Below are positions 8,793 to 30,581 of a stretch of DNA of 64,000 bases, piece by piece (position 1 is the stretch's first letter; each line of letters starts with the position of its first letter). This DNA is from Phycisphaerae bacterium (GTDB lineage Bacteria > Planctomycetota > Phycisphaerae > Sedimentisphaerales > Anaerobacaceae): NCBI GenBank assembly GCA_030639495.1, contig DAOWCP010000002.1:10156-74155 (forward strand), written 5' to 3'. Both the position numbers and the translations under genes were made by a program. The notes under the pieces were generated by a model. The model did not search any database. It saw nothing but the letters and a program-made list of their open reading frames with translations, and was not told the origin of the DNA.

Positions 8793-8891
8793 AAAAAGGT
8801 GAAGGTGATTCAGGGTGACTTGAATTATGACGGCATGGTCGATCTGGTAGATTTTGCGATTTTTGCCGGACAGTGGTTGGAAGGGATATAA
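8793..8891 (+). pseudogene. remnant of a C-terminal dockerin-like or calcium-binding module (KKVKVIQGDLNYDGMVDLVDFAIFAGQWLEGI*) with no upstream coding body
   Basis: A D-x-N-x-D-G-x-V-D repeat is followed by a hydrophobic/aromatic tail and a stop. In-frame stops lie immediately upstream. It sits inside a GC-richer stretch of the intergenic region. Confidence 0.3.
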
Positions 8892-10484: not shown

Positions 10485-10498
10485 ATGGGAGTGGTTTT

Positions 10499-11293: not shown

Positions 11294-11978
11294 ACTGATA
11301 AATATCAGAAAGGAATATCGATCACCGGTAGAAGATCGAAGTGTCGTTGTTTTGAACGATATAAGTCTAAAAGTCAGTGAGGGACAATCTTTGGCAATAG
11401 TAGGGCCCTCTGGTAGTGGAAAAAGTACACTGCTTAATATCATTGGAACGCTTGACAGCCCCACTGCCGGGCGTGTGCTTTTCGATGATACGGACCTGGC
11501 GAAAGTTAATGATAGCCAACTTGCAAAAATGCGCAATGAGCAGATAGGATTTGTTTTTCAGCTGCACCATCTTCTGCCGCAATGCAGTGTGCTTGAGAAT
11601 GTTTTGATACCTACGCTTGTAGGGGAAAAAGTGACTTCCAGAAAAGCATTTGAGCAAAGGGCTGTTGGTTTGCTTGAACATGTTGGTCTAAAAGATTTGC
11701 TGTATCACAGACCATCAGAGCTTTCAGCAGGCCAGAGACAGCGGGTAGCGGTTGTCAGGGCTTTAATAAATAAGCCGAAATTGCTGCTGGCTGATGAGCC
11801 GACCGGCTCGCTCGATGCTGAGGCTTCAGAGACGATAGCGGAATTGTTGGTAGAGTTAAACAAAAGCGAAAAGGTAACGTTGCTTGTTGTAACACATTCC
11901 AACAGACTTGCTGAGCGTATGGGTCAGGTGTTAGCTATCGAAAAAGGTAAACTTGTTAAGAGGAAAAGCGGAGAGTAA
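11286..11978 (+). CDS. ABC transporter ATP-binding protein of the FtsE/LolD/MacB family
   Basis: Walker A GPSGSGKST. Signature LSAGQRQRVAVVRAL. Walker B LLLADEPTGSLD. The Q-loop and H-loop (VTHS) are also present. Confidence 0.9.
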   Translation: MLELINIRKEYRSPVEDRSVVVLNDISLKVSEGQSLAIVGPSGSGKSTLLNIIGTLDSPTAGRVLFDDTDLAKVNDSQLAKMRNEQIGFVFQLHHLLPQCSVLENVLIPTLVGEKVTSRKAFEQRAVGLLEHVGLKDLLYHRPSELSAGQRQRVAVVRALINKPKLLLADEPTGSLDAEASETIAELLVELNKSEKVTLLVVTHSNRLAERMGQVLAIEKGKLVKRKSGE

Positions 11979-11983
11979 TAATA

Positions 11984-14900: not shown

Positions 14901-15298
14901 TTAGTGCCGTTGAAAATAGTTATTTATCGATTTTTCAACTGTTGGGGAGTTTCGGATTGATTCTTGGAAGTGTTGGTCTTGGTGTGGTTGTTGGGCGAAA
15001 TGTCCTTGACCGAAGGGGCGAGTTGGCAATGCTAAGAGCGATCGGGTTTAACAGGAAAACTTTAAAACTAATGGTGTTCTATGAGCATGTTGGGCTTTTG
15101 TTCTGGGGTTTGTTTCTTGGAAGCATAACAGCATTAATAGCGATTTTTCCCGTACTGAACGAATCAGTGACAGAAGTTCCTTATTTATCATTGATATTAT
15201 CAATAATGGCAATAGCCGTCAGCGGTGTTATATGGATATGGATAGGAACTTCTATTGCTTTAAGCGGCAAAATCATTGACGGGCTCAGGAGAGAATAA
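11984..15298 (+). CDS. large ABC transporter permease with two FtsX-type 4-TM domains and large extracytoplasmic domains (MacB/LolCE-like, 1104 aa)
   Basis: N-terminal TM. Two FtsX-domain TM bundles at about aa 490-640 and 950-1104, with long periplasmic regions between them. It immediately follows the cognate ATPase. Confidence 0.85.
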   Translation: MSLIKKSLTFYWRTNIGVLLAVIVGTAVLAGSLFVGDSVEYSLKMTVERRLGSTELALMTGDRFFTNELTERLADKLDAQTAGVLGVRGMVANSDGTGRANRVEILGVDARFYEITAASNNPFQNGDNSGVIINESLADRIGVKAGDEVLLRIAKPASMSREIVLTPKSDLTIAFRLKVTAIANQSQSGLFSLQANQISPLNAFVPLQWLQEKSGRESQANMLLVASGTEAGISTEKANESIRECLQLGDMGLEVRSNAERDSLELRSNRIFIDSRIGDVSVESGKEAVGVLTYFVNRLRAGGKTTPYSMVTAMSTSDDKNSLIPMDMTDDEIIINQWLCDDLETRAGDFIEVDYFVISSGRKLTENTAKFRVRAVVPLDGPAGDPDLMPDFPGLAEMDNCRDWDTGIPIDLDEIRDKDEKYWDSFGGTPKAFITLKAGQKIWANRYGNLTAVRYPLNENSGEKLTQSLLSRIDPALSGLYFQPVRRLGIRASNEGTDFGQLFIGFSMFIIAAALVLLGLLFVFGVEKRCSEIGILLAVGFEEKNIKRMFLTEAIVLTLIGTVSGIVTGLVYTNAMLYGLGSIWRTAVSNWRISFYVEPTTLLKVALIAVTVCMAAIWFAFRKQMRKSARQLLDENLEWQFLTTNPLSKGRLALSVSGFFAAAAVIFLILMGRGDEGISAGAFFGAGGLLLIASIALTHALLKIFAGSKIRPAVSIAALAWRNSLRRRGRSLAVVTMLACGVFIVIAVGANKHDPLAGLQTNQSGTGGFSLMGESAIGVLHDLNSKSGRKSVGLDAKESEDTEIVQLRVRDGDDASCFNLNRAQQPRLFGINPKKLQQRKSFLFTRTIEENGPAGWNLLNLNLGDDVVAAIGDEATIKWGLGKSVGDEIVYSNDNGKRFRVRLVGMLKNSILQGSLLIAEEDFIRHFPTEAGYRLFFVDTPEKKTRSISETLSTRLKDYGLEVTTTAQKLAAFSAVENSYLSIFQLLGSFGLILGSVGLGVVVGRNVLDRRGELAMLRAIGFNRKTLKLMVFYEHVGLLFWGLFLGSITALIAIFPVLNESVTEVPYLSLILSIMAIAVSGVIWIWIGTSIALSGKIIDGLRRE

Positions 15299-15313: not shown

Positions 15314-16717
15314 ATGAAAAACTTTCTTATAGCAAGAGTAATACCAATCTTTTTGGGATTATTGGGCGCTTTTCTGATATTTATTTGGCTTAGAAGCGAT
15401 GTTGCGACCGAATTTACGCTGCGACTGCCCGGCGAAGACGGTAGCGATCGCAATGTTTCTACTGAAACCGAGCCGATAGAAATTGAAGGGGAACTAATTA
15501 AGTTTGAGGGCACAACGACCAATTTGCCCGGCGCATGGCCCCGATTTAGAGGGTCTAATTTTGATGGCGTCAGCCGTCAGAAAATGCAACTTGCCACCGG
15601 ATGGCCCGAACAGGGCCCGCCGTTGCTTTGGTCCATCGATGTCGGCGAAGGATATGCAGGAGCTGCTGTTTTAGCGGGACGGGTCTATGTTTTTGATTAT
15701 GACCGTGAGAATAAATCCGATGTTATTCGTTGTTTGTCACTTGCCGACGGCAAAGATATATGGAGGTATTCTTATCCGGTAAAAGTTAAGCGCAATCATG
15801 GAATGAGCCGAACTGTTTCTGCAGTTACTGAAAAGTACATCGTAACTTTGGGGCCGAAATGCCATGTTACATGTCTCGATTCCGTTACAGGCGAATTTCG
15901 ATGGATGATAAATCTCGTCAGGGAATTCAACACCAAAGTTCCGCAGTGGTATGCAGGCCAATGCCCTTTGATTGAAGGCGACAAGGCAATAATAGCTCCG
16001 GGCGGTGATTCACTTATGATAGCTGTTGATTGCCTGACTGGTGAAATCGTATGGCAAACCCCTAATCCGAATGAATGGAAGATGACGCATTCCTCTATAA
16101 TCCCCGCTGAATTTATGGGCAAACGAATGTATATTTATTGCGCAAGCGGAGCAGTGGTAGGAGTCGATGCTGATGATGGTACTATTTTATGGGAAACAAC
16201 TGACTGGAAAATTCGTATCGCAAATGTACCCTCACCAGTTCTCGCAGGTGATGGTTTGATCTTTCTTTCGGGCGGCTATAACGCAGGCAGTATGATGCTT
16301 CAATTAAAATCTGAAGAAGCGAAAATAATTGCTGATCCCCTTTTCAAACTGGCTCCAGAGGTGTTCGGATCTGCGCAACAGACGCCAATATTTTATAACG
16401 GTTATATTTATGGAGTTCGGCCGGATGGACAATTAACATGTCTTGATTTGACGGGAAAGGTCATGTGGACGAGCACAAGTGCGGAGAAATTCGGCCTCGG
16501 ACCTTATGTCATTATTAATGACTTAATATATGTGATGAATGATTCGGGACTGCTCACTTTAGCAAAGGCTACAGCTGAAAGTTTTTTTAAGCTTGCTCAA
16601 GCAAAAGTTCTCGAAGGGCCGGATTCATGGGGACCTATGGCGTTCGCCGGCGGGAAATTGATCTTGCGAGATATGAATCGAATGATATGTCTGGATATCA
16701 GCGAATATAAAAAGTGA
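15314..16717 (+). CDS. membrane-anchored PQQ-like beta-propeller repeat protein
   Basis: TM anchor. Entry motif WPRFRGSNFDG. Propeller blades as in the 9279 paralog. Confidence 0.8.
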   Translation: MKNFLIARVIPIFLGLLGAFLIFIWLRSDVATEFTLRLPGEDGSDRNVSTETEPIEIEGELIKFEGTTTNLPGAWPRFRGSNFDGVSRQKMQLATGWPEQGPPLLWSIDVGEGYAGAAVLAGRVYVFDYDRENKSDVIRCLSLADGKDIWRYSYPVKVKRNHGMSRTVSAVTEKYIVTLGPKCHVTCLDSVTGEFRWMINLVREFNTKVPQWYAGQCPLIEGDKAIIAPGGDSLMIAVDCLTGEIVWQTPNPNEWKMTHSSIIPAEFMGKRMYIYCASGAVVGVDADDGTILWETTDWKIRIANVPSPVLAGDGLIFLSGGYNAGSMMLQLKSEEAKIIADPLFKLAPEVFGSAQQTPIFYNGYIYGVRPDGQLTCLDLTGKVMWTSTSAEKFGLGPYVIINDLIYVMNDSGLLTLAKATAESFFKLAQAKVLEGPDSWGPMAFAGGKLILRDMNRMICLDISEYKK

Positions 16718-16794
16718 CCATATTGCATTAGATAGCGTTAAAAGTTATAATGAACTTTTATTCCTGTTAACAGTAGATATTAAAAAAACGTTAA

Positions 16795-17820
16795 ATGGTA
16801 AGAATATTAAAAAATAAGACATTGGTGGGGTTATTGATAGCGGCTTCAGTAGTTGCCGGTATTGCAGCCATCGTGCTTTTCGATATAACAGGGGAAAAAG
16901 GCAGCGGGTTGGGAAAAGAGTTTGTCTATGATATTGAGGACATTATAAAGATAGACCCGAATCTGATTATTTATGCCCAATCTTCTGAGCCTATATATAC
17001 CGGCTTTGAGGTATCTCGTGGGATCACAGTAGATACCAATGGCACTATTTATGCAGCAGGTGACAACGCCATTCGTTTATTTGACAGTAGTAGTAATTTA
17101 CAGGGAGAAATTCGACTCGATAGCAGCCCCCGATGTATTGCCGTAAGCAAGGACGGTAAAATATATATAGGGCTGAAAAATCAGGTTCAGGTGTACGACA
17201 GCAATAAAAAACGTTTGGCAAGTTGGCCGCATTTGAATAGTGATGCTGTCCTTACCAGCATAGCTGTTTTGAAAAATGATGTGTTCGTTGCCGATGCGGG
17301 CAATCGAATTGTTCTGCACTATGATACTAATGGGAAATTGCTTAACCGTATAGGCGGCAAAAACAAAGAGAGAAATATTCCCGGCTTTGTGATACCCAGT
17401 CCTTACTTCGATCTTGCTATTGCCGAAGACGGACTTTTACGTGTAGTAAATCCAGGCAGACACAGGATCGAGGCGTATACTTTTGATGGTGATCTTGAAT
17501 TCTGGTGGGGGTTCTACTCTCCGAATATTGAAGGATTCTGCGGTTGCTGCAATCCCGTAAATTTTACCATTCTCGAAGATGGCAGTTTTGTTACAGTCGA
17601 AAAGGGCCTGGTTCGAGTAAAGGTATATGATATAGATGGTAATTTTGTATGTGTTGTGGCTGGACCTGAGCAGTTAATCGAGTCAGATGAGGCGAAAATC
17701 TGCCAAATTCCTGCAAATTGTCAGGCCGGTGGTTTTGATTTGGCCGTTGATAACAAACAACAAATCCTCATATTGGATACGATTAGAAATGTCATAAGGA
17801 CATTTGCAAAGACAAGGTGA
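16795..17820 (+). CDS. membrane-anchored NHL/six-bladed beta-propeller-like protein with a CGCC cysteine cluster
   Basis: TM anchor LVGLLIAASVVAGIAAIVLF. Repeated blade-like segments (IYAAGDNAIRLFD, IYIGLKNQVQVYD, VFVADAGNRIVLHYD). Cysteine cluster EGFCGCCNP. Confidence 0.5.
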   Translation: MVRILKNKTLVGLLIAASVVAGIAAIVLFDITGEKGSGLGKEFVYDIEDIIKIDPNLIIYAQSSEPIYTGFEVSRGITVDTNGTIYAAGDNAIRLFDSSSNLQGEIRLDSSPRCIAVSKDGKIYIGLKNQVQVYDSNKKRLASWPHLNSDAVLTSIAVLKNDVFVADAGNRIVLHYDTNGKLLNRIGGKNKERNIPGFVIPSPYFDLAIAEDGLLRVVNPGRHRIEAYTFDGDLEFWWGFYSPNIEGFCGCCNPVNFTILEDGSFVTVEKGLVRVKVYDIDGNFVCVVAGPEQLIESDEAKICQIPANCQAGGFDLAVDNKQQILILDTIRNVIRTFAKTR

Positions 17821-18079
17821 AATAGTGGGCGAATATTCTATGAAAATGCGAAACCGCCGTCAAATAATGACAGGTACTTTGCGATACGCAGTATTGGGCT
17901 TAGTTGGTTTTTTTGCGGGCTCAGCAATTGTAAAAAGACGCAGATTGATAAAGGAAGGCAAGTGCATTAATCTGGGAATATGCCGGGACTGCAAACTCTA
18001 CGAAAGCTGTAGATTGCCTCCAGCCTTGTCAAAAAAACAATTCTTTATAAAAAAAGACAATGTCAAAAGAAAAAATTAA
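17804..18079 (+). CDS. small single-TM protein with a C-x5-C-x2-C-x5-C cysteine motif; the real start is probably the internal Met near 17840
   Basis: TM helix LRYAVLGLVGFFAGSAIV is followed by KCINLGICRDCKLYESC. Its ends overlap both flanking genes, a pattern consistent with translational coupling inside the operon. Confidence 0.4.
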   Translation: MQRQGEIVGEYSMKMRNRRQIMTGTLRYAVLGLVGFFAGSAIVKRRRLIKEGKCINLGICRDCKLYESCRLPPALSKKQFFIKKDNVKRKN

Positions 18080-18620
18080 CAGACGAAAATTCTTGAAGGA
18101 TGGACTTTGGGGAAGTTGCTTAACGGGCTTAACCGTCATAGCTGGTGTCTTCATATCTAAAAAACGCAACGATGAAATGGTATGGCAGCTTGACCCGTAT
18201 AAATGTGTTGCCTGCGGAAATTGTGCCACCTATTGTGTACTGGAAGAGTCGGCTGTCAAGTGTGTGCATTCATACGCGATGTGCGGCTACTGCGATCTTT
18301 GTACTGGTTTTTTTGAACCAGAACCAAGAGAGCTTGACACGGGAGCTGAAAACCAACTCTGCCCTACCGGTGCAATAAAACGCAGTTTTATTGAAGACCC
18401 GTATTATGAATACACGATTGACGAGCCACTTTGTATCGGCTGCGCGAAATGTGTTAAGGGTTGTAACGCATTCGGGAACGGGTCATTGTTTTTACAGGTT
18501 CGGCACGACCGTTGTTTGAATTGCAATGAATGTTCCATCGCAGCAGCCTGCCCTTCGCAGGCGTTTAAGCGAGTTTCAGCTAATGAGCCTTATTTAATTA
18601 AACAGATGGGGCACGCTTAA
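18060..18620 (+). CDS. TAT-signal 4Fe-4S polyferredoxin (NapG/MauM-like periplasmic ferredoxin)
   Basis: Twin-arginine motif NRRKFLKDG followed by a hydrophobic region. Four Cys clusters of the CxxCxxCxxxC type (CVACGNCATYC, CGYCDLC, CIGCAKCVKGC, CLNCNECSIAAACP). Confidence 0.7.
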   Translation: MSKEKINRRKFLKDGLWGSCLTGLTVIAGVFISKKRNDEMVWQLDPYKCVACGNCATYCVLEESAVKCVHSYAMCGYCDLCTGFFEPEPRELDTGAENQLCPTGAIKRSFIEDPYYEYTIDEPLCIGCAKCVKGCNAFGNGSLFLQVRHDRCLNCNECSIAAACPSQAFKRVSANEPYLIKQMGHA

Positions 18621-19948
18621 TGTTACGTTTCAGTTCTATCTTAATATCTATCTTCATCCCCATTGTTTTATGCAGTGTTGTGTTCGGGGCAGAGCGATTT
18701 CCACCCCCGGATTTTGAAGAAAGTGGTCATAAACTGCCGTCAACAGATTATATAACCAACATTACATCTCGTCATCTTATTTACGAATATTTGGATGTAG
18801 TGGTATTGGTGGCGGCCCTTTCATTGGCATCTTATCTCGTTCTAAAAAAACGATCAAGACGTTCGGTATTTATTTTAATGGTGTTCTCATTACTTTATTT
18901 CGGTTTCTGGCGGAAAGGTTGTATATGCTCGATAGGAGCAATTCAAAACTTTGCTTTATCGATCTTCGATAATAATTATGCTCTTCCAATTTCGGCTATA
19001 ATATTTTTGATATTGCCGTTGATCTTCACTTTGTTTTTTGGACGAACCTTTTGTGCTGGTGTATGTCCGCTTGGCGCTATTCAGGATTTAGTCGTGTTGC
19101 GTCCCGTAAAAGTTCCAGTACCGCTGGAAAGCAGCCTGCGATTATTTGCATATATATACCTTGCTGCCGCGATTCTTTTTGCCTCCACTGGCAGTGCTTT
19201 TATAATATGCCGATATGACCCGTTTATATCTTTCTTTCGCCTGTCGGGGCATCTGAGCACATTGATACTTGGTTGCTGTTTCTTAATTATTGGAATGTTC
19301 GTAGGTCGTCCTTATTGCCGATTTATCTGTCCGTATGGTGTTATTCTCCGGCAGTTTTCCAGGCTCTCGAAATGGAAAGTCACAATCACCCCGGACGAGT
19401 GTATTAAATGCAAACTGTGCGAAGATTCCTGTCCGTTTGGTGCTATTACAAAACCAACAGTTGAATGGCCGCAAATCGGTTACACTAAAAGCAGGAGGTT
19501 GTTAGCTTTATTGATCCTTCTTTTGCCGGTGTTGATGTTTTCAGGCGGCTTCGGCGGCGCAAGCCTTAACCGGTCATGGTCACGGATGCATACGACTGTC
19601 AGATTAGCAGAACGCATTTACATAGAAAACCAGGACATGCTAAGCGAAACTACGGATGCAAGTTCTGCGTTCAGAGCAACGGGAGAACCTATCGAAGATC
19701 TCTATGCCCAGGCCTCTGTAATCAGAAAACAGTTTAGATTTGGAGGCTGGTTGTTGGGTGCTTTAATAGGTTTAATTGCGGGTCTTAAACTCATAATCCC
19801 ATCGATCAGAAGACAGAGGGCGGATTTTCAGGCTGACGATGCGAGCTGTTTAGCCTGCGGCAGGTGTTTTAAGTCCTGCCCCAGGGAGCACGTCAGATTA
19901 AAAAGTTTAAGAGAAAAACAGGACAAGGCAGATGACGACAAAATATGA
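18620..19948 (+). CDS. integral-membrane 4Fe-4S protein of the NapH/MauN/CcoG family
   Basis: Multiple TM helices. Hallmark CX3CP motifs FCAGVCPLG and CRFICPYG. Two cytoplasmic ferredoxin motifs, CIKCKLCEDSCP and CLACGRCFKSCP. Confidence 0.75.
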   Translation: MLRFSSILISIFIPIVLCSVVFGAERFPPPDFEESGHKLPSTDYITNITSRHLIYEYLDVVVLVAALSLASYLVLKKRSRRSVFILMVFSLLYFGFWRKGCICSIGAIQNFALSIFDNNYALPISAIIFLILPLIFTLFFGRTFCAGVCPLGAIQDLVVLRPVKVPVPLESSLRLFAYIYLAAAILFASTGSAFIICRYDPFISFFRLSGHLSTLILGCCFLIIGMFVGRPYCRFICPYGVILRQFSRLSKWKVTITPDECIKCKLCEDSCPFGAITKPTVEWPQIGYTKSRRLLALLILLLPVLMFSGGFGGASLNRSWSRMHTTVRLAERIYIENQDMLSETTDASSAFRATGEPIEDLYAQASVIRKQFRFGGWLLGALIGLIAGLKLIIPSIRRQRADFQADDASCLACGRCFKSCPREHVRLKSLREKQDKADDDKI

Positions 19949-21656
19949 TAATCAAAATACGGGTAGCAGTACCAAATCTTCCTGGTATGAGGCAGCTAAA
20001 GGTGCTGCTATTGTAGCAGGTGTATTTATCGTAATAATCCTCGGGCTACTCGTTTTAAATTATCTTCAAATAAAATTACTTGATCCTATGCGTACAGAGA
20101 GACTGGAGAATTGGAAGGTAGAGTTGCTTGGGCAGCCTAAAAACGAACAACTGATAACCAAAATTCGCCAGCTTGACCTGCAATTAAGGAAAGACAAAGT
20201 TCGCCGTATTCAATTTTCGCAAAGAGGAACTATCTTACTGCTTGGGGCTGTTGCGGTTTTTCTTATTGGAATAAAATCAGCCAAAGCATTCAAAGAAAAA
20301 CTTCCTTGTCCATCGACTGTTACTGATCAGCAGGGGCAACAAATCCGGCAAGCTATACTCACGCGCAGGATTACAGTTGCAAGTTTGGCGGTTTTAGTTT
20401 TAGCCATTTTGTTTTTTATTAATACCCCAAAAATTGATTTTATAAAGGCAGGTGCGTCTTATCCTTCGGATGAAGAAATTGCCAAAAACTGGGCCGGTTT
20501 TCGCGGACCTGGGGGGAGCGGCGTAAGCGCTTATACTAATATACCAACTAAGTGGGACGGCAAAACAGGTCAGAAAATTATGTGGAAAGCAAATGTGCCG
20601 CTGTCAGGTCATAACTCGCCGATAGTCTGGGGGGATCGTGTTTTTCTTTCAGGTGCAACCAGGCAAAAGCGTCAGGTTTATTGTTTTGATGCAATTTCGG
20701 GAAAGTTGTTGTGGCAGGCTGATATGAAAGCTCCTCCTGTAACTGCCGGCGAGCCAATCGAATTGGAGGACGAGACCGGCTATGCCGCACCGACCGTTGC
20801 AACGGACGGCACCAGGGTCTATGCAATTTTTCCAACTGGTGATGTCGGCTGTTTCGATTTTGAAGGCAAAGCGTTATGGTCAAGAAATTTGGGAATGCCT
20901 GACAGTGCTTATGGCTATGCTTCTTCGCTTGCTATGTATCAAAATCTGCTTTTAATTCAGTATGATCAGGCAACTGCTGAGGATAATAAATCAAAAATAA
21001 TAGCTTTAGATACTTTTTCAGGCGTAACGGTTTGGGAAACCAATCGTCCGGTTCCTAATTCATGGACTTCTCCAATAGTAGCCAAAATCGCCGGCCAGAG
21101 TCAATTGATCACCTGCGCCGACCCATGGATAATAGCTTATAACCCATCGAATGGAGCCGAACTTTGGCGAGCAGAGTGTCTTGGAACAGATGTAGCTCCT
21201 TCTCCGATCTATGCGGGCGGTTTAGTATTCGGCATACATCCCTATACCTCGCTGGTCGCAATAAAACCCATGGGCCAAGGCGACGTGACCAAAACACATA
21301 TTGCATGGAAGGCAACCGACAACATCCCTGACATTGGTTCGCCGGTCAGCAATGGCAAATTGATATTTCTACTTGAAACATACGGAATACTTACCTGTTA
21401 TAAGGTTAGCGATGGTACAAAACTTTGGGAGCAGGATTTGAAAACAAGTTTCACGGCTTCGCCGAGCCTGGTTGGCGATAAGCTGTACCTGCTAAGCGAA
21501 AAGGGTATTATGTTCATAGCTAAAGTTGGAAACGAATATACAGAACTGGTTAAAAGCCCCTTAGGTGAAAAGTGTTATGCCTCGCCAGCTTTTGCTGACG
21601 GTCGTATTTATATTCGTGGTGTTGAAAATCTCTATTGCATTGGTGACAAAAAATAA
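19932..21656 (+). CDS. PQQ-like beta-propeller repeat protein with three N-terminal TM helices
   Basis: TM segments in the first ~170 aa. Entry motif WAGFRGPGGSG. Propeller blades (VFLSGATRQKRQVYCFDAISGKLLWQ and similar). Confidence 0.8.
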   Translation: MTTKYDNQNTGSSTKSSWYEAAKGAAIVAGVFIVIILGLLVLNYLQIKLLDPMRTERLENWKVELLGQPKNEQLITKIRQLDLQLRKDKVRRIQFSQRGTILLLGAVAVFLIGIKSAKAFKEKLPCPSTVTDQQGQQIRQAILTRRITVASLAVLVLAILFFINTPKIDFIKAGASYPSDEEIAKNWAGFRGPGGSGVSAYTNIPTKWDGKTGQKIMWKANVPLSGHNSPIVWGDRVFLSGATRQKRQVYCFDAISGKLLWQADMKAPPVTAGEPIELEDETGYAAPTVATDGTRVYAIFPTGDVGCFDFEGKALWSRNLGMPDSAYGYASSLAMYQNLLLIQYDQATAEDNKSKIIALDTFSGVTVWETNRPVPNSWTSPIVAKIAGQSQLITCADPWIIAYNPSNGAELWRAECLGTDVAPSPIYAGGLVFGIHPYTSLVAIKPMGQGDVTKTHIAWKATDNIPDIGSPVSNGKLIFLLETYGILTCYKVSDGTKLWEQDLKTSFTASPSLVGDKLYLLSEKGIMFIAKVGNEYTELVKSPLGEKCYASPAFADGRIYIRGVENLYCIGDKK

Positions 21657-24010
21657 TGGATGAGCTTGATTTGACATTTGTAGACGAGGCTGTCGAGCAA
21701 ATCGGGGCAGGCCAAGAGAAAGTTCTTGAGATCGCTCAGAGCATACAGGGACATTTCGGATATCTGCCCAAAGAAGCTCTTGAGCGGGTATGCGAATTGA
21801 CAGATATCACACCCGCATCCATTGTCGGAGTTACAACTTTTTACGACCAGTTTCGGCAACAACCGGCTGGCAAACACATAATAAAAATTTGCATTGGAAC
21901 TGCCTGTCACGTTAAAGGAGCGAGTTCCATTTATGATGCGTTTCAAAGGCATCTGGGTATTACCGGCGATGAAGATACTGATGAGCAGGGGTTGTTTACA
22001 CTCGAAAAGGTAGCATGTCTGGGCTGCTGTACTTTAGCTCCGGCGGTACAGATCGGTAATGTCACTTATGGCCACCTGACGACTGATACTGTTGGCAAGG
22101 TTACTAAGGATTACCTGAGGTATTTGAAGACCAATAAAGGTAAATCGAAAACTGCTGAAAAAATCGAAACTAAAAAGCAGGGCTATGGTGAGATTCGAAT
22201 TGGTCTTGGTTCCTGCTGTGTTGCACGCGGCAGTGGTAAGCTTGAGCAGGCGATCGAAAAGGTAATTGAAGAAACGGCTATCAAGGCTGTGATAAAACGT
22301 GTAGGATGCGTGGGGATGTGTTACCAGACGCCTCTTCTTGAAGTTATTACCGCTGAGAGGGAATCTTATCTTTATACTAAGGTAAGACCTGAAGATACCA
22401 AGTCTATAATACTAAAGCATTTTAAGCCAGGAACCTTCAGAAAAAGAATTTCCAATAAGGTTACCGGCATACTGGACAAAATTATTACCGACAAATTAGG
22501 TGAACCCCTTTTGCATTACCCTGTAAATATCAGGGACCCGCAGGTAGCAGATTTCATGGGGAAACAAGAGCATATTACTACCGAACATTGTGGATTCATA
22601 GACCCGCTTGATATCGATGAATATCAGAGCAAAGGCGGCTTTGAAGCACTGCGTAAATGTTTCAGTCAGATGACCGGTGATGAAGTGATCGATCAGATTC
22701 GCAATAGCGGACTTCGCGGAAGAGGTGGCGCAGGCTATCCGACATATCTTAAATGGTCAACTATTCGTAAAAATAATGCTAAAGAAAAATATGTGATTTG
22801 TAATGGTGATGAAGGTGATCCCGGCGCTTTTATGGACCGAATGCTGATGGAGTCTTATCCGTACCGAATTATCGAGGCGGTCACAATAGCAGCCTATGTA
22901 GTTGGTGCAAGCAAGGGGATGTTTTATATCCGTTCGGAATATCCTCTGGCACTGATGCGAATGAGCAAAGCCTTGGAAAACTGCCGAGAGAGGGGCTTTC
23001 TTGGCAATGACATTTTCCAAAGTGGTTTCAATTTGGAGCTGAAAATAGTTACCGGTGCCGGTGCATTTGTTTGTGGTGAAGAAACTGCTCTTATGGCCAG
23101 TATAGAAGGCCGTCGCGGCATGCCCCGGCTTAGACCTCCCTATCCAACTGAAAGAGGACTTTGGTCAAAGCCAACGCTTATTAATAACGTAGAGACTTTT
23201 GCTTCAATACCATGGATTTTACATAACGGTCCGAAAACTTTCGCCTCTCTGGGGACATCGGCCAGTAAAGGAACAAAGGTTTTCGCTCTTGCCGGGAAAG
23301 TTGCCAGAGGCGGTTTAATTGAAGTGCCAATGGGGATTACCATAAGAGAGATCGTAGAAGATATTGGCGGCGGAATAGGAGAAGACAAGCGATTCAAAGC
23401 TGTACTGATTGGGGGCCCTTCCGGAGGTTGTGTACCTGCTGAACTGTCAGATATTTCAGTAGATTATGAATCGTTAAATGAAGCTGGTGCAATTATGGGT
23501 TCCGGGGGTTTGGTTGTACTGGATGAGTCAGACTGCATTGTTGACATCGCAAAGTATTTCCTTGAATTCACCCAAAACCAATCCTGCGGAAAATGTACAT
23601 TCTGTCGGATAGGAACTCGGCGAATGCTTGATATTCTTGAAAGGCTTTGTGATGGCAACGGCAAGAGCGGTGATATCGAAGAATTAGAAAAAATGGCGCA
23701 GATGATAAAAAAGGCAAGCCTTTGCGGCCTGGGAAAAACCGCTCCAAACCCCGTCCTTTCAACAATCAGATATTTTCGAAATGAGTATGAAGCTCATATT
23801 GAAAAACGCTGTCCTGCCGGCAAATGTAAAGCACTGATTACATATTCGGTTACAGACGACTGTATTGGGTGCACTTTGTGCGCACAACATTGTCCGGTTG
23901 ATGCTATCGAGATGAGGCCTTATGAAAAACACGAAATAGACAACGAAAAATGTATCCGATGTAATACATGCAAAAACGTATGTCCAACTGACGCGATAAA
24001 GGTTGAGTAA
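21656..24010 (+). CDS. NAD(P)H-binding flavo-iron-sulfur protein: NuoE-like 2Fe-2S domains fused to a NuoF core and a C-terminal 2x[4Fe-4S] ferredoxin (HndC/HymB/HoxF-like)
   Basis: Thioredoxin-like 2Fe-2S motifs CIGTACHVKG...CLGCC and GSCC...GCVGMC. NuoF core GLRGRGGAGYPTYLKW with a glycine-rich NADH site and SLBB domain. 4Fe-4S motif CGKCTFCRIG. C-terminal CIGCTLCAQHCP and CIRCNTCKNVCP. Confidence 0.85.
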   Translation: MDELDLTFVDEAVEQIGAGQEKVLEIAQSIQGHFGYLPKEALERVCELTDITPASIVGVTTFYDQFRQQPAGKHIIKICIGTACHVKGASSIYDAFQRHLGITGDEDTDEQGLFTLEKVACLGCCTLAPAVQIGNVTYGHLTTDTVGKVTKDYLRYLKTNKGKSKTAEKIETKKQGYGEIRIGLGSCCVARGSGKLEQAIEKVIEETAIKAVIKRVGCVGMCYQTPLLEVITAERESYLYTKVRPEDTKSIILKHFKPGTFRKRISNKVTGILDKIITDKLGEPLLHYPVNIRDPQVADFMGKQEHITTEHCGFIDPLDIDEYQSKGGFEALRKCFSQMTGDEVIDQIRNSGLRGRGGAGYPTYLKWSTIRKNNAKEKYVICNGDEGDPGAFMDRMLMESYPYRIIEAVTIAAYVVGASKGMFYIRSEYPLALMRMSKALENCRERGFLGNDIFQSGFNLELKIVTGAGAFVCGEETALMASIEGRRGMPRLRPPYPTERGLWSKPTLINNVETFASIPWILHNGPKTFASLGTSASKGTKVFALAGKVARGGLIEVPMGITIREIVEDIGGGIGEDKRFKAVLIGGPSGGCVPAELSDISVDYESLNEAGAIMGSGGLVVLDESDCIVDIAKYFLEFTQNQSCGKCTFCRIGTRRMLDILERLCDGNGKSGDIEELEKMAQMIKKASLCGLGKTAPNPVLSTIRYFRNEYEAHIEKRCPAGKCKALITYSVTDDCIGCTLCAQHCPVDAIEMRPYEKHEIDNEKCIRCNTCKNVCPTDAIKVE

Positions 24011-25565
24011 AATGGTCAAACTTGTAATTGATAATATCAATGTTGAAGTTGATGATGGTGCAACTGTACTCGATGCTGCTCAAAAGCTTGGGATAGAAAT
24101 TCCTACGATGTGCTTTCTCAAAGGCTATGCCGCTTCAACCAGTTGTATGATATGCATTGTAAAAATTGCCGGTATCGAATCGTTTATGCCGGCGTGCGGG
24201 ACAATCGCAACAGACGGGATGGAAGTCGAAACATCTTCTGAAGAAATCCATCAAGCCCGGAAAGTTGCCCTGGAATTGTTGTTAAGCGACCACCTTGGTG
24301 ACTGCATGGGGCCTTGTCAGGTTATCTGCCCGGCGGGTTTGGATATACCACTGATGATCAGGCAGATCAGGGATGGCAAATTAAAAGATGCTATTGTTAC
24401 GGTAAAGCGTGACATCGCGTTACCCGCGGTGTTGGGTAGGATTTGCCCGGCTCCGTGTGAAAACGGATGTAGACGTGCGAAATTTGATCAGCCGGTTTCA
24501 ATTTGTCTGCTGAAACGATATGTGGCGGATGTTGATTTGTTCTCAGATAGGCCTTATCTGCCAGTCTGTGAAGCTGAAAAAGGCAAACGTGTAGCTATTA
24601 TTGGGGCTGGACCTGCGGGTTTGGCTGCTGCGTATTATCTGCTCCAAAAAGGATACGCCTGCACAGTGTATGATGACCACGACAAGCTGGGAGGAATGCT
24701 CAGGTATAGTGATTGTTCAAAAATATTAGACAGTGAGGTGCTGGAAAAGGAAGTTGACCTTATCAAACAACTCGGGGGTGAATTTTTAGGCCAAACTAAA
24801 ATTGATTCTGCCTCATCTCTTGAAAAGTTGCGTCAGGAATTTGATGCCGTTTTTGTGGCTGTAGGAGAATTGCCCGGCAATAACGAATACCTGGGTTTAG
24901 CTATGGGGCAAAAGGGAGTTAAGATAAACAATACGTACCAAACGAATATTCCTGGCGTCTTTGCAGGTGGTGATGTTGTTAGTAAACGAAGGCTTGCGGT
25001 TCGCTCTGTTGCCGATGGTAAGAAAGCAGCTATCGCTATTGATCAGTTTCTATCGGGCGGGGAAGTAATCGGGCCGCAAAAAAAGTTTAATAATCGTATT
25101 GGTAAATTGCTGGACAATGAGATAGATAATTTTATGTTGACGGCGGATAATCCTTCACGTGTATCGCCTTTACGCAAGAGTGAAGGATTTACCGAGAGCC
25201 AAGCTAAACAGGAATCCGCCCGTTGTTTGCATTGTGACTGTCGTAAAACCGATAGCTGTAAGCTGAGGGAATACAGCCGGCAATACCAGGTCAGGCAGAA
25301 CAGGTACAAGGGCAAAAGAAATTTATTTAGCCAACAGATTCAACATCCCTGTATAATTTATGAACCCGGCAAATGTATAAAATGCAACCTCTGCATTCAG
25401 ATAGCGACCGAAGCAAAAGAAAAACTTGGGCTGACGTTCATAGGCAGGGGTTTTGATGTGAAAGTTGCTGTACCATTTGATAAAGCTCTCGCTGAAGGGC
25501 TTAGCCATATTGGCTATAAATGTGTCGAAGCGTGCCCGACATCTGCGTTAGCTTTAAAGGATTAG
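24003..25565 (+). CDS. 2Fe-2S ferredoxin domain fused to a GltD-like FAD/NAD(P)H oxidoreductase with 4Fe-4S clusters (NfnB/SudA/GltD-like)
   Basis: N-terminal plant-type 2Fe-2S fold (CFLKG...C..C). GltD-like Fe-S region CPAGLDIP...CPAPCENGC. Rossmann motif VAIIGAGPAGLAAAYYL. C-terminal CIKCNLC. Confidence 0.75.
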   Translation: MSKMVKLVIDNINVEVDDGATVLDAAQKLGIEIPTMCFLKGYAASTSCMICIVKIAGIESFMPACGTIATDGMEVETSSEEIHQARKVALELLLSDHLGDCMGPCQVICPAGLDIPLMIRQIRDGKLKDAIVTVKRDIALPAVLGRICPAPCENGCRRAKFDQPVSICLLKRYVADVDLFSDRPYLPVCEAEKGKRVAIIGAGPAGLAAAYYLLQKGYACTVYDDHDKLGGMLRYSDCSKILDSEVLEKEVDLIKQLGGEFLGQTKIDSASSLEKLRQEFDAVFVAVGELPGNNEYLGLAMGQKGVKINNTYQTNIPGVFAGGDVVSKRRLAVRSVADGKKAAIAIDQFLSGGEVIGPQKKFNNRIGKLLDNEIDNFMLTADNPSRVSPLRKSEGFTESQAKQESARCLHCDCRKTDSCKLREYSRQYQVRQNRYKGKRNLFSQQIQHPCIIYEPGKCIKCNLCIQIATEAKEKLGLTFIGRGFDVKVAVPFDKALAEGLSHIGYKCVEACPTSALALKD

Positions 25566-25784
25566 CTTAACAACTACCTCCTTTCAAGGTGTTTTTTTGT
25601 AATAAAGCTATATTCTTGATTTTTTTATTGAACCTTATACGTTCAAATTATTATATACATAAGTGTGATAATATAATTTGCGAAACAAACCATCCTATAA
25701 GGCGGTTTAAGCCAAGGTTGGCTTTTCTGGTCAACTTTGATACAATGTTGTGGAAATTTATGTACTGTTTTAAGGAATCACTAT

Positions 25785-28220
25785 ATGAAAACACAGAGTA
25801 AAATCACAAAACGTTTATTGGTTGCGGTATTTTTTATATTAATCGGCTTTTGTAAAGTTTCAGATGCCGCCGACTGGCCTAACTGGCGGGGTCCGAATTA
25901 TGACGGCATATCTGTAGAAAAGGATTGGGATCCTTTAAAGATCAAAGACGGTATGAAACCTTTGTGGAAGGCTTCGATTGGGATTGGTTTTTCAACAATT
26001 TCGGTAAGTGATGGTCGGGCTTATACAATGGGCAACACCGGCGTCAAGGGTGAGGATAAAAGCAAACACAATGACATTACTTTCTGCTTTGACGCTGAGA
26101 CCGGCAAAGAGATGTGGAGGCACACTTATCCTCAGCAGCTGGATCCAAAGTATTACGAGGGAGGCTCATTAGCTACTCCCACAGTTAGCGGCGGCAAAGT
26201 TTATACTATTAGTAAGGATGGAAAGACCTTTTGCCTTGATGCGAAAACCGGCAAGGTGATATGGCAAAAGAATCTGTTGGATGAATTGGGAATCAAGCGT
26301 ACCACATGGGGGCATTCTGGTTCGCCGGTAGTTATCGACAATATGGTTATTTATAGCGCGGGCAGGATGGGGGTTGCTCTTAGTAAAGACAACGGTAGTT
26401 TGATCTGGGAAGGCAGCAAGGAGCGAGGCGGATACGCAACGGCGGTGCCTTTCATGATGGGTAATCAAAAATGTATCGCACTGTTTGGATTCGAAGATAT
26501 TATTGGATTAGTTGCGGCAACGGGAAAGGAGTTGTGGAGATTTCCCTGGAAGACAAAACATGATGTCAATGCCGCCGACCCGATTATTGTCGGCAGTAAG
26601 ATATTTATATCCTCTGGATACGGTACCGGATGCGCGCTGTTGAAAATCGAAAATGAAAATGTCACCGAATTATGGCGCAATAAAAACATGCGTAGTAAAA
26701 TGAATGGTTCTGTTTTTTGGAAAGGCCATATTTACGGCGTTGATGAAGGGGGCGATTTGAGATGTCTGGATATTAAAACAGGTGAGATTGCATGGAGTGA
26801 GAAGGGATTTGGTCAGGGTAGTATTACGATTGCCGACGATAAACTCATCGTTCTGGGTGAAAAGGGTAATTTAGTTATCGCTGAACCCACACCTGACGGC
26901 TATAAGGTTATTTCCCAAGCGAAAATACTTTCGCCCAGATGTTGGAGCGTTCCGGTTCTGGCAAATGGTAGGCTTTATGCCCGTAATGCTGCAGGTGATA
27001 TGGTTTGTTTAGACGTCAGCAAAAAGGCGGCTAAGGCAATTTCGACAGGGAAAAACTGGGCTCAGTGGCGTGGGCCAAACCGTGACGGTAAATCAACTGA
27101 GACAGGACTTTTGAAGGAATGGCCTGAGGGTGGACCAGAACTTTTGTGGTCAGTAGAGGGGTTGGGCGAAGGGTTCTCAACGGTTTCTATTGCAGATGGT
27201 GTTGTTTATACAACGGGAATAATAGATAAGCAGGGAGTACTTTTCGCCTTAGACCTCCAGGGTAAATTAAAGTGGAAGAAAATATATGGTCCTGAATGGA
27301 CAGGGTCGCATTCGGGTACGCGTAGTACGCCAACGGTTGATGGTGACAGGATATATGTTTTCAGCGGCCAGGCCGCTTTGTACTGTCTTGATGCAAAAAC
27401 AGGAGTCGCCAAATGGTCCGTAGATACTCTGGATAAGTTTGGCGGAAAGCTCTTGCGATGGGGTGTGGCGGAATCGGTGTTAATTGACGGCAATAAAGTG
27501 ATCTGTTCACCCGGCGGAGAAGATGCCAGTGTAGTTGCTCTGAATAAAATAACAGGGGAAACAATCTGGACAACTAAAGGCTTAAGCGAAAAAAGTGGTT
27601 TTTGTTCGCCGATCCTTGTTGAGCGTGGCGGGAAAAGGCTTATCGTAACAATGCTGGCTAAATCTGTGGTTGGTATTGATATCGAGACAGGAAAACTCGT
27701 TTGGAGCACACCTGCGAAAACTTCTGTGCGAAGAGGTAGAGGCAGTAATCCCATTACTCCTTTATATCTTGATGGTGAAATCTACACCACCAGCGGATAC
27801 GGCAAAGGCGGCGCAATGTTTGAACTTTCAGCCGACGGCTCAGGTGTTACCACTAAATGGAGTGATAAAATTCTTGATGTCCATCATGGCGGTGTTGTGG
27901 TTGTCGATGAGTACATTTACGGGTCAAGACACAATGGCAACTGGGTGTGTCTGGATTGGAACAGCGGCGAGGTGAAATATGAAAACGACAAAAAGGGTAA
28001 GGGCTCAATAACTACAGCCGAAGGTATGTTGTATTGCTATGATGAAAAAAAAGGCACGGTCAAGCTGGTGAAGGCGACTCCTGAAAAATTTGATATTGTC
28101 AGCTCTTTTAAGGTTCCAATGGGAACAGATGAATATTGGGCACATCCGGTGATTTGTGACGGAAAATTGTATATCCGCCATGGTGAAGCTTTGATGGCTT
28201 ATGATATAAAAGCAAAATAA
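25785..28220 (+). CDS. secreted tandem (double) PQQ-like beta-propeller protein
   Basis: Signal peptide MKTQSKITKRLLVAVFFILIGFCKVSDA. Two propeller units, each opening with a W-x-x-W-R-G-P-N-x-D-G motif (WPNWRGPNYDG and WAQWRGPNRDG). The TTG start at 25737 in the ORF track was rejected in favour of the ATG at 25785. Confidence 0.8.
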   Translation: MKTQSKITKRLLVAVFFILIGFCKVSDAADWPNWRGPNYDGISVEKDWDPLKIKDGMKPLWKASIGIGFSTISVSDGRAYTMGNTGVKGEDKSKHNDITFCFDAETGKEMWRHTYPQQLDPKYYEGGSLATPTVSGGKVYTISKDGKTFCLDAKTGKVIWQKNLLDELGIKRTTWGHSGSPVVIDNMVIYSAGRMGVALSKDNGSLIWEGSKERGGYATAVPFMMGNQKCIALFGFEDIIGLVAATGKELWRFPWKTKHDVNAADPIIVGSKIFISSGYGTGCALLKIENENVTELWRNKNMRSKMNGSVFWKGHIYGVDEGGDLRCLDIKTGEIAWSEKGFGQGSITIADDKLIVLGEKGNLVIAEPTPDGYKVISQAKILSPRCWSVPVLANGRLYARNAAGDMVCLDVSKKAAKAISTGKNWAQWRGPNRDGKSTETGLLKEWPEGGPELLWSVEGLGEGFSTVSIADGVVYTTGIIDKQGVLFALDLQGKLKWKKIYGPEWTGSHSGTRSTPTVDGDRIYVFSGQAALYCLDAKTGVAKWSVDTLDKFGGKLLRWGVAESVLIDGNKVICSPGGEDASVVALNKITGETIWTTKGLSEKSGFCSPILVERGGKRLIVTMLAKSVVGIDIETGKLVWSTPAKTSVRRGRGSNPITPLYLDGEIYTTSGYGKGGAMFELSADGSGVTTKWSDKILDVHHGGVVVVDEYIYGSRHNGNWVCLDWNSGEVKYENDKKGKGSITTAEGMLYCYDEKKGTVKLVKATPEKFDIVSSFKVPMGTDEYWAHPVICDGKLYIRHGEALMAYDIKAK

Positions 28221-30562: not shown

Positions 30563-30581
30563 GCTGTTGGAAAAATTAAAA

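Follow-up and report, generated by a model that had tools for sequence, protein, structure and literature searches.

To which electron acceptor does a bacterium connect a NapG/NapH-like membrane module when no terminal reductase is encoded beside it? This question is raised by a gene cluster of a Phycisphaerae bacterium (assembly GCA_030639495.1) that we analyzed within a stretch of 64,000 nucleotides of contig DAOWCP010000002.1 (positions 10,156 to 74,155; hereafter the window, with coordinates counted from its first letter). The original prediction had singled out six open reading frames (ORFs) at 17804-25565 and read them as a transmembrane electron shuttle feeding a periplasmic acceptor. 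ORF and domain scans confirmed these six ORFs with the motifs ascribed to them, and the ORF table and its translations place all of them on the + strand with overlaps of 1-20 nt between neighbors. The six genes do belong together, but the conserved unit is larger than this set, starting upstream at 15314 and including two propeller genes (15314-17820), and consists of eight core genes spanning 15314-25565. A transmembrane electron relay to a periplasmic partner is still the best reading of the architecture, synteny and gene fusions found here, and we consider it moderately probable that one complex connects a core of the Bfu family of flavin-containing enzymes, at which NAD(H) and probably ferredoxin react, to a periplasmic propeller site via a NapH-like protein and two iron-sulfur proteins of the twin-arginine translocation (Tat) pathway, with a net outward flow that would serve as an electron sink. 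The core genes are the following:

Core gene 1, prop467: 15314..16717, + strand; membrane-anchored 8-bladed BamB/PQQ (pyrroloquinoline quinone)-like beta-propeller of 467 amino acids (aa)
Core gene 2, NHL341: 16795..17820, + strand; membrane-anchored NHL-type propeller
Core gene 3, small91: 17804..18079, + strand; 91 aa with a twin-arginine (RR) motif, one transmembrane (TM) segment and C-x5-C-x2-C-x5-C
Core gene 4, Fd186: 18060..18620, + strand; 186 aa, Tat-signal ferredoxin with four [4Fe-4S] motifs and NapG-like architecture
Core gene 5, NapH442: 18620..19948, + strand; 442 aa, integral-membrane polyferredoxin whose NapH/NosR-type module is supplemented by further TM helices and further conserved Cys
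Core gene 6, prop574: 19932..21656, + strand; 574 aa, periplasmic PQQ_2-type propeller preceded by three TM segments
Core gene 7, NuoEF784: 21656..24010, + strand; 784 aa, BfuC (NuoE-type 2Fe-2S) domain fused to a full-length BfuB
Core gene 8, GltD520: 24003..25565, + strand; 520 aa, BfuA-like with a 2Fe-2S domain, GltD-like clusters and a flavin domain

The extent of the unit follows from 80 related loci that were collected by a NapH442 search of one genome per GTDB species and compared with the proteins of the window, counting seven genes per locus (prop467, NHL propeller, ferredoxin, NapH-like protein, prop574, NuoEF fusion and short GltD-like protein). All seven are present in 45 independent loci, and 44 of these are collinear on a single strand, an association that exceeds chance. 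Roughly 100 GTDB species carry the cluster, and the related loci span at least seven phyla (Planctomycetota, Verrucomicrobiota, Lentisphaerota, Bacteroidota, KSB1, Hydrogenedentota and Marinimicrobia); those of Planctomycetota come from Phycisphaerae, Pirellulales, Thermoguttaceae and Gemmataceae, while those of Lentisphaerota include Victivallis vadensis, of which cultured strains exist. The closest named relative is the Black Sea metagenome-assembled genome (MAG) of Phycisphaerae bacterium BS750m-G65, which shows the same synteny and encodes a protein 88% identical to NapH442. The NapH-like family is abundant as well as broad, with 422 clusters at 50% identity matching NapH442 at E <= 1e-30 in an exhaustive search of 1.84 billion cluster representatives, and each of the best 120 matches among 90%-identity clusters is at least 62% identical to it. 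Equivalents of the eighth core gene, small91, were missed by BLAST outside Phycisphaerae because the ORF is short, yet a small91-like ORF with RR motif, TM segment and four Cys lies just 5' of the ferredoxin gene in 55 of 74 loci and in all phyla. Clustering of 343 unassigned neighboring ORFs revealed no further family in more than 7 of the 80 loci.

Two kinds of natural fusions tie these genes together even more closely. Ten of the 150 best NapH442 cluster representatives are proteins of 973-1136 aa (P0243 and P0252 among them) whose C-terminus is a full prop574-type TM-propeller at 35-48% identity. The other kind, seen in the Lentisphaerota loci L038 and L063 (V. vadensis), begins as the small RR/TM/4-Cys protein and continues as the four-cluster ferredoxin, so that both parts should lie on the same side of the membrane. 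The genes are collinear and overlapping and two independent fusions connect their products, which suggests that the latter form one physical complex.

The claim that this set lacks a terminal reductase holds well beyond the cluster itself. In the window, we found no NapA, NosZ or other recognized terminal oxidoreductase, and the 80 neighborhoods are likewise free of NapA and NosZ as well as of cytochromes and molybdoenzymes; genes of the nap, nos and mau types are absent from the window and none recurs in the 80 neighborhoods.

The electron-transfer proteins

Bfu enzymes are hallmarked by a BfuB subunit with flavin mononucleotide (FMN) and cluster B1, by B2/B5 sites and a two-cluster C-terminal domain (B3/B4) that are absent from non-bifurcating homologs, and by a BfuC subunit with cluster C1 (Schut et al. 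PMC9304861; Li et al. PMC11829005). All of these defining features are present in NuoEF784, i.e., the FMN/NADH domain with B1, the additional B5, B2 and B3/B4 elements and the C1-bearing BfuC part. Its residues 179-784 match NfnB of Caldicellulosiruptor saccharolyticus end to end (9bov_B, E 8e-220), followed among solved structures by StnB (8oh5_B), archaeal NfnB (9n5u_B) and HydB of bifurcating hydrogenases, with NuoF of complex I far behind. Residues 10-153 are the NuoE/BfuC 2Fe-2S domain (Pfam 2Fe-2S_thioredx, E 3e-47), and the remainder is recognized by Pfam as Complex1_51K (E 7e-46) and NADH_4Fe-4S (E 5e-34) and carries the conserved stretches GRGGAG, NGDEGDPGAF and GAGAFVCGEETAL. Across 58 orthologs, the ligands of B1 (C644, C647, C650 and C690) and of C1 (C79, C84, C121 and C125) are conserved, as are the B3/B4 tail (C736-C746 and C766-C776) and the B2 site (C719, C724 and H714) at the level of at least 90%, while the B5 site is conserved only in part, with C188 and C218 as the sole positions that reach at least 90%. 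The BfuC and BfuB parts are joined by a Lys-rich linker, and their fusion, whose median length is 798 aa, persists in every phylum. The curated NuoF model TIGR01959 gives 482.7 bits against a cut-off of 558.65, and neither the window nor the 80 loci hold any other nuo genes.

The second cytoplasmic protein, GltD520, finds its best structural matches in NfnA and StnA (9bov_A at E 1e-102, 8oh5_C and 9n5u_A) but aligns to 9bov_A in two pieces, residues 3-290 to 2-288 and residues 279-516 to 425-671, which means that NfnA residues ~289-424, the NADPH-binding Rossmann domain of about 136 residues, are missing. GltD520 thus corresponds to the N-terminal 670 aa of NfnA/StnA minus the NADPH domain. 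The C-terminal ~500 residues of NfnA are likewise missing, and the chain names chosen by the depositors ("Molybdopterin oxidoreductase" and "Formate dehydrogenase-O major subunit") suggest that this lost part is molybdopterin-like. The short form is no peculiarity of the window, as the median length of 51 orthologs across all phyla is 525 aa, and the cluster ligands and the flavin motifs GxGxxG, D224 and GG are conserved across orthologs. Models of GltD itself fall far short of their cut-offs (NF009454 with 433 bits against 916, TIGR01317 with 144 against 448). Of the original description as a GltD-like enzyme, the 2Fe-2S and GltD-like clusters and the flavin domain therefore stand, while use of NAD(P)H does not because the NADPH-binding domain is deleted; for the same reason, the module cannot be an NADPH transhydrogenase.

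Judged by sequence, NuoEF784 and GltD520 constitute a Bfu-type (NfnABC/StnABC-like) module with a BfuC-BfuB fusion and a BfuA-like subunit from which the NADPH-binding domain has been lost. The original prediction had called the pair reminiscent of Nfn/Hyd-type bifurcating modules, and the resemblance turns out to be much closer than that, as subunits B and A of NfnABC/StnABC are the nearest relatives with solved structures. A further hallmark of the family, the tight coupling of NAD(H), ferredoxin and a third substrate by bifurcation or confurcation, is one that this module may share.

On the membrane side, NapH442 carries two CX3CP motifs (C145/C149-P and C233/C237-P) and two CxxCxxCxxxCP ferredoxin motifs (C261-C271 and C410-C420), with Pfam matches to Fer4_5 in two stretches (E 7e-14) and to Fer4. 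Among 81 sequences, 15 Cys are conserved at 90% or more, comprising the two CX3CP pairs, the two ferredoxin motifs and, in addition, G-C101-x-C103 and C197. Hydropathy reveals seven hydrophobic segments, with an eighth near residues 80-97 appearing only in a low-confidence model, so that the NapH/MauN motif set sits on about eight such segments compared to the four of the usual TM module, and a two-TM insertion separates the ferredoxin motifs. Mean loop charges over the 81 sequences are +4.4 for the loop at 74-81, +3.4 and +3.1 for the loops of the second CX3CP and the ferredoxin motifs, +1.4 for the loop of the first CX3CP and negative for the loops at 25-53 and 316-357, and therefore place both CX3CP and both ferredoxin motifs in the cytoplasm.

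The two small iron-sulfur proteins encoded next to it appear to be exported. Fd186 combines the twin-arginine motif RRKFLK with 16 Cys in four cluster motifs, and the RR pair and all 16 Cys are conserved at 90% or more in 78 sequences; an RR-x-[FLIVM]-[LIVMF] motif is found in 73 of 77 homologs, and the lack of a strongly hydrophobic segment in the hydropathy profile fits a Tat signal. Its closest solved relative is WorS, the four-cluster subunit of WorABCSL (9mqx_E, E 4.6e-6). Beyond what had been noted before, small91 is itself a conserved Tat/TM/4-Cys protein in which R18, R19 and the four Cys are at least 90% conserved and whose equivalents often have more canonical Tat motifs (RRDFFK, RRGFLK or RREFLR). 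The protein probably provides an iron-sulfur or metal domain that is inserted by Tat and anchored in the membrane, and its true start is probably the ATG near 17840.

With a Tat RR motif and 16 Cys in one protein and two CX3CP plus two ferredoxin motifs in the other, all conserved, the NapG/NapH-like architecture proposed earlier is real at the level of motifs, but membership in these families is not borne out by the scores. NapH442 reaches 48.1 bits with the NapH/MauN model TIGR02163 (cut-off 213), 44.6 with PRK09477 (cut-off 234) and 44.9 with the NosR/NirI model NF046105 (cut-off 1000), and the Pfam FMN_bind domain was not found in it; Fd186 reaches 16.5 bits with the NapG/MauM model TIGR00397 (cut-off 178.85) and 17.4 with PRK09476 (cut-off 269). 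For the CcoG/RdxA/FixG group, no model ranks in the top 25 of 53 NCBIfam matches, so that any such match would lie below about 21 bits. The shared pairing of a Tat four-cluster ferredoxin with a CX3CP membrane protein bearing two ferredoxin motifs, together with these weak matches to NapH, NosR and NapG models, could be taken to mean that the genes are ordinary NapGH, NosGH/NosR or MauMN accessories of a reductase encoded elsewhere that happen to lie beside an unrelated NADH dehydrogenase and propellers. We give this idea hardly any credence, in view of the distance to the cut-offs, the missing FMN-binding domain, the strict collinearity with Bfu and propeller genes in 44 loci of seven phyla, the fusions of NapH-like proteins to a propeller and the absence of nap, nos and mau genes described above.

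A more serious competitor is that the membrane domain of NapH442 forms a (mena)quinone site, as proposed for NapGH, which would make the system a Bfu-type NADH/ferredoxin:quinone oxidoreductase that confurcates or bifurcates like EtfABCX/Fix and whose periplasmic ferredoxins pass quinol electrons on to reductases encoded elsewhere. Membrane-bound, quinone-linked Bfu enzymes such as Nuo-Bfu have been predicted by Schut et al. (PMC9304861), a flavin domain kept without an NADPH site would suit a two-electron partner such as quinone, and the cluster is also found in probably aerobic or facultative lineages (MAGs of Gemmataceae, Pirellulales and Tepidisphaeraceae). We nevertheless regard a quinone-coupled enzyme as unlikely, as it would leave unexplained why three to five propellers are strictly co-conserved and why fusions join one of them to the NapH-like protein, a reductase that could act downstream does not recur in the 80 neighborhoods, and the NapH family models score far under their cut-offs.

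The propellers and the proposed complex

Every propeller of the cluster bears an N-terminal TM segment in its hydropathy profile instead of a lipobox, which none of them has, and these anchors place the propeller domains outside the cytoplasm. In prop467, 90 of 467 positions are at least 90% conserved across phyla, and the motifs H162-G-x-S-R-T, W212-Y-x-x-Q-C217-P, N251, M257-x-H259-x-S261 and Q355-x-x-P358 are invariant in all 65 sequences. In a structure model, the invariant residues fall in loops just ahead of the first strand of successive blades, from which we infer that they are gathered on one face of the propeller around its central channel. The paralogs prop574 and prop827 (encoded just downstream of the core; see below) share with prop467 only an N-terminal WxxxRG, Arg452 and mostly the four structural Cys, while the invariant residues specific to prop467 are absent from prop574 and from both halves of prop827. 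Of these paralogs, prop574 (Pfam PQQ_2, E 1e-35) has TM segments at 24-42, 96-114 and 147-165 and is encoded by a gene that overlaps both neighbors, and prop827 (Pfam PQQ_2, E 4e-59) consists of two halves that are each 27-29% identical to prop467. NHL341 is recognized by Pfam as NHL, has a TM segment at residues 10-28 and contains the motif F-x-G-C-C-N-P (F248, G250, C251, C252, N253 and P254) in 73 of 73 orthologs.

These patterns make prop467 the best candidate for the terminal site, as a putative periplasmic catalytic or substrate-binding subunit, and prop467 and NHL341 together candidates for the catalytic end of the system. As a matter of speculation, the His/Cys/Met/His set of prop467 could suit a metal site and its polar Arg/Ser/Thr/Gln/Asn set an anionic substrate. 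The earlier suggestion that the acceptor is to be sought among the co-encoded propellers is thus strengthened insofar as strict synteny and fusions link them to the redox genes, whereas their role as acceptor is that of a candidate.

In the complex that we favor, the NuoEF784/GltD520 module would bind NAD(H) at its FMN and probably ferredoxin at its C-terminal two-cluster domain, and its third arm, facing nothing that could bind NADPH because this site is deleted, would join the two cytoplasmic [4Fe-4S] clusters of NapH442. Such docking has a precedent in NapH, which binds the FeS protein NapF on the cytoplasmic side and NapG on the periplasmic side (PMC5928378), and such wiring in Bfu cores that are connected via chains of four-cluster ferredoxins (PMC12318220). 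Reducing equivalents would then traverse the membrane through the Cys-rich membrane domain of NapH442, be taken up in the periplasm by the two Tat-exported iron-sulfur proteins, four-cluster Fd186 and 4-Cys small91, and be handed to a site formed by the membrane-anchored propellers, whose likeliest catalytic parts would be prop467 with its private invariant His/Cys/Met/His pocket and NHL341 with its invariant Cys-Cys. While domain identities, loss of the NADPH domain, ligand conservation, Tat motifs, synteny and fusions are directly established, proposals built on them concern how the Bfu module contacts NapH442, how and in which direction electrons cross the membrane and what the substrate is.

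Flow would most likely be directed outward, from NADH (alone or together with reduced ferredoxin) to a periplasmic acceptor, and the whole would act as an electron sink for mostly fermentative, polysaccharide-degrading hosts. In anoxic sediments, stratified lakes, peat, digesters and the gut, polysaccharides are degraded predominantly by the host phyla, and if our reading is true, it would supply metabolic models of these uncultured groups with a redox-balancing route that they lack. The opposite direction, in which a low-potential periplasmic donor is oxidized at the propellers and the Bfu core bifurcates the inward electrons to NAD+ and ferredoxin, has the advantage that characterized Bfu enzymes oxidize a third substrate of middle or low potential (H2, formate, NADPH or aldehydes) and reduce NAD and ferredoxin (PMC9304861, PMC11829005, PMC12318220) and that the complete set of BfuBC cofactors is conserved. 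Still, few periplasmic donors have potentials near -400 mV, those known need hydrogenase, Mo/W or Ni centers of which none is encoded in the cluster, and the propellers are devoid of the corresponding cofactor motifs, which makes inward flow improbable in our eyes.

A bolder form of the outward scheme would see here a new class of respiratory-type enzymes in which a ferredoxin/NADH-confurcating Bfu core and the NapH-like relay feed low-potential electrons via the periplasmic iron-sulfur proteins to a catalytic pair of prop467 and NHL341, with a new His/Cys/Met/His site and vicinal Cys-Cys, that reduces a periplasmic substrate such as thiosulfate, polysulfide or polythionate. We put this forward tentatively, as a possible but doubtful extension of what is outlined above; if true, it would amount to a widespread, overlooked electron sink of fermenters in the Planctomycetes-Verrucomicrobia-Chlamydiae (PVC) and Fibrobacteres-Chlorobi-Bacteroidetes (FCB) groups.

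Thiols offer another way of moving reducing equivalents outward. In this alternative, the system would serve envelope maintenance like DsbD, with the BfuA-like flavin reducing the CX3CP pairs and thiol-disulfide exchange across the membrane keeping the Cys of BamB-like propellers, or of the cargo of a MacB/Lol-type ATP-binding cassette (ABC) exporter, in the reduced state. The flavin domain of GltD520 indeed has the thioredoxin-reductase/AhpF fold, CX3CP motifs may be disulfides rather than clusters (PMC5928378), invariant Cys occur in NHL341 (Cys-Cys), in prop467 (C217) and on the presumed outer side of NapH442, the nearest folds to prop467 are BamB-like scaffolds, and an ABC system of the LolD/MacB type often adjoins the cluster. 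A thiol relay, by contrast, has no need for two Tat-exported iron-sulfur proteins with about five clusters, the ABC module is missing from most loci outside Phycisphaerae, and an elaborate Bfu core would be an unusual donor for housekeeping disulfide reduction, so that we judge this possibility decidedly unlikely.

Several points weigh against the electron relay to the propellers, the main one being that function and direction are inferred throughout. The search for haem or other cofactor motifs in the propellers that had been proposed earlier came out negative, with no CxxCH (haem c) motif in any protein of the cluster, no recognizable redox cofactor site in any propeller and no match of a propeller to a full-length quinoprotein propeller model with the cofactor-binding residues that would mark a PQQ-dependent dehydrogenase, and the folds nearest to prop467 are cofactor-less scaffolds such as BamB and YxaL. 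The crossing at NapH442 is likewise conjectural in that the carrier could be a cluster or a thiol; the placement of C101, C103 and C197 on the outer side follows only from the alternation of helices, and the AlphaFold2 model of NapH442 from a 49-sequence alignment has a predicted local distance difference test score (pLDDT) of 52, too low for fold searches or cofactor geometry. In GltD520, Asp324 of the "GD" motif is variable, so that flavin binding is not certain, and the retention of the flavin domain despite the lost NADPH site would be left unexplained if the protein were a pure iron-sulfur wire; it hints at a two-electron partner, e.g., quinone or a disulfide. Finally, three loci (L034, L041 and L072) lack adjacent Bfu genes, meaning that the membrane and periplasmic part may use another donor, though what follows downstream in L034 and L041 are unrelated genes (an Rrf2 regulator, a phosphate-type ABC importer and queC) and no alternative donor module.

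Accessory genes and the rest of the window

The core is flanked by genes that are frequent but not constant companions; they are listed here together with the two tRNA genes of the window:

Accessory module as a whole: 9279..15298, + strand; PQQ-like propeller, glycosyltransferase family 4 (GT4)-like protein, ABC ATPase and FtsX permease
Accessory propeller: 9279-10484, + strand; PQQ-like
GT4-like protein: 10499-11293, + strand
ABC ATPase: 11286-11978, + strand; LolD/MacB-type
Duplicated FtsX permease: 11984-15298, + strand; 10 TM segments by hydropathy
Frequent accessory prop827: 25737..28220, + strand; double PQQ_2 propeller, signal- or TM-anchored, paralog of prop467
tRNA gene: 35050-35132, - strand; Rfam
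tRNA gene: 54883-54955, + strand; Rfam

Of 25 long Phycisphaerae-type loci, 15 contain homologs of the ABC ATPase and FtsX permease, as do one unclassified and one Hydrogenedentota locus, and the accessory module is partial or rearranged in some loci of Verrucomicrobiota, Lentisphaerota and Bacteroidota. The GT4-like protein has 264 aa both in the window and in its closest relative (L003) compared to a median of ~433 aa elsewhere, and the lineage of the window appears to have lost the C-terminal half of this glycosyltransferase. Homologs of prop827 (40-69% identity) adjoin the core in many loci of several phyla.

A few NapH-like proteins deviate from the usual arrangement. P0251 and P0245 were considered as ferredoxin::NapH fusions and rejected, as their ~200 extra N-terminal residues do not match Fd186, and in P0242, ~200 extra C-terminal residues match part of the prop574 protein. 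On the Phycisphaerales bin7 chromosome CP070678.1 (locus L027, 8576-13011), NapH-like and prop574-type genes occur without homologs of prop467, the NHL propeller, the ferredoxin or the short GltD-like protein; tblastn and ORF tables disagree on a NuoEF homolog downstream, and the NapH-like ORF has 902 aa with an N-terminal extension of ~475 aa. This locus may represent a second, reduced paralogous system.

Downstream of prop827, at 28222-34994 on the same strand, the window encodes a 275-aa ferredoxin, a B12-binding radical SAM protein, a DUF116::polyprenyl synthase fusion (641 aa), a prenyltransferase-like alpha/alpha-toroid protein and a squalene-hopene-cyclase-like protein, and the original prediction had considered the lipid product as a possible acceptor. 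We rejected this link, since none of the 80 loci shows co-conservation of the terpenoid-type genes; beside the redox cluster, the 275-aa ferredoxin and the B12-radical SAM gene are the sole members of the run to recur, and they do so just in the closest Phycisphaerae (L003, L004, L013, L014 and L025). The run of co-directional genes is closed by the opposite-strand tRNA gene at 35050-35132, which stands between the squalene-hopene-cyclase-like gene and a separate run of sugar-metabolism genes (URO-D-like, fucose-isomerase-like, DUF2961 and phosphofructokinase). Promoter and terminator scans gave counts near or under the shuffled expectation, with no scored terminator in any coding-strand intergenic gap inside the cluster, and an Rfam scan of the window brought up nothing beyond the two tRNAs.

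Immediately 5' of the first propeller gene, at 7783-9278, lies a region of ~1.5 kb whose longest ORF is at most 88 aa and which has an unusually high GC skew (0.30) and no Rfam match; it is bordered at 7267-7782 (- strand) by a gene divergent from the cluster that encodes a small secreted or lipoprotein-like protein with EF-hand calcium-binding motifs. The remainder of the window contains housekeeping genes and genes for carbohydrate metabolism or sulfatases, including at 42854-47826 (- strand) a sulfatase with a laminin-G-like domain that adjoins an 892-aa protein with a C-terminal FGE-sulfatase (formylglycine-generating-enzyme) domain, a pair typical for PVC-group degraders of sulfated polysaccharides.

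Comparison with known systems

We found no description of this cluster in the literature searched, and it is mentioned neither in the 2022 survey of Bfu enzymes (PMC9304861; main text, supplementary figure legends and summary table) nor in the paper on Hydrogenedentota Bfu enzymes. The survey gives only Mbh-Bfu and Nuo-Bfu as membrane-bound types and leaves 17 of its 57 clades unassigned (PMC9304861).

The cytoplasmic part is most akin to Nfn-Bfu, i.e., NfnABC of C. saccharolyticus and Pyrococcus/Thermococcus and StnABC of Sporomusa ovata. NuoEF784 holds a complete BfuB (FMN/NADH, B1, B2, B5 and B3/B4) and the BfuC 2Fe-2S cluster, and GltD520 shares with NfnA/StnA the 2Fe-2S cluster, a His-ligated cluster, the GltD-type clusters and the flavin domain. 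In contrast to these enzymes, BfuC and BfuB are fused, and the NADPH Rossmann domain (~136 aa) and the C-terminal ~500 residues of NfnA are missing, so that NADPH is not the third substrate. The genes are also always tied to membrane and periplasmic proteins, partners that no described Nfn-Bfu has. Among other Bfu enzymes, WorABCSL and further Type 2 members (with WorS, CooF or HycB) similarly reach their third substrate via a four-cluster ferredoxin chain, in line with WorS being the nearest solved relative of Fd186. Unlike these ferredoxins, Fd186 carries a Tat signal and should be separated from the Bfu core by the membrane, and a catalytic subunit with tungsten, molybdenum, nickel or an H-cluster is absent.

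The relay resembles NapGH, as well as NosGH and MauMN, in the pairing of a Tat ferredoxin with four [4Fe-4S] clusters and a membrane protein with two CX3CP and two cytoplasmic [4Fe-4S] motifs, and the contact of NapH with the cytoplasmic FeS protein NapF parallels the one that we propose for NapH442. It differs in family scores far under the cut-offs, in about eight hydrophobic segments instead of four, in a two-TM insertion between the ferredoxin motifs, in the extra invariant Cys (G-C101-x-C103 and C197) and in its partners, which are a Bfu module and propellers in place of NapA, NapB and NapC. If confirmed, the arrangement would address the question of what the cytoplasmic clusters of NapH/NosR-type proteins connect to.

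NosR, NirI and RdhC (PceC) share with NapH442 a membrane module with two CX3CP motifs, and NosR also two C-terminal [4Fe-4S] motifs. The parallel extends further in that NosR is the proposed electron donor to a periplasmic beta-propeller enzyme, NosZ, and is accompanied by an ABC system, NosDFY. The periplasmic FMN-binding domain, NosZ and its copper-center histidine pattern are absent from our cluster, however, the propellers are 8-bladed BamB/PQQ-like and NHL-type, and the ABC system is of the MacB/Lol type and not ABC-2.

Among 8-bladed PQQ-like propellers such as BamB, YxaL and tetrathionate hydrolase, prop467 stands apart by its N-terminal TM anchor in place of a lipoprotein signal, by invariant residues (His162, Cys217, Met257, His259 and others) that are not shared even by its own paralogs, and by its genetic tie to redox proteins. 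In scans of the paralogous 574-aa, 827-aa and 401-aa propellers, the BamB model TIGR03300 stayed below its cut-off of 285 bits (58.6-187 bits, with 58.6 for prop574). If our reading is true, the cluster would point to a new kind of periplasmic catalytic propeller.

Taken together, the cluster is by its protein families best described as a Bfu enzyme joined to a NapGH-like relay, and it is distinct from Nfn-Bfu by the lack of an NADPH site, from NapGH, NosR and MauMN by scores and partners, and from complex I. Among the Bfu-type enzymes described in the literature searched, it would, if the proposed complex is real, be the first with its third arm outside the cytoplasm.

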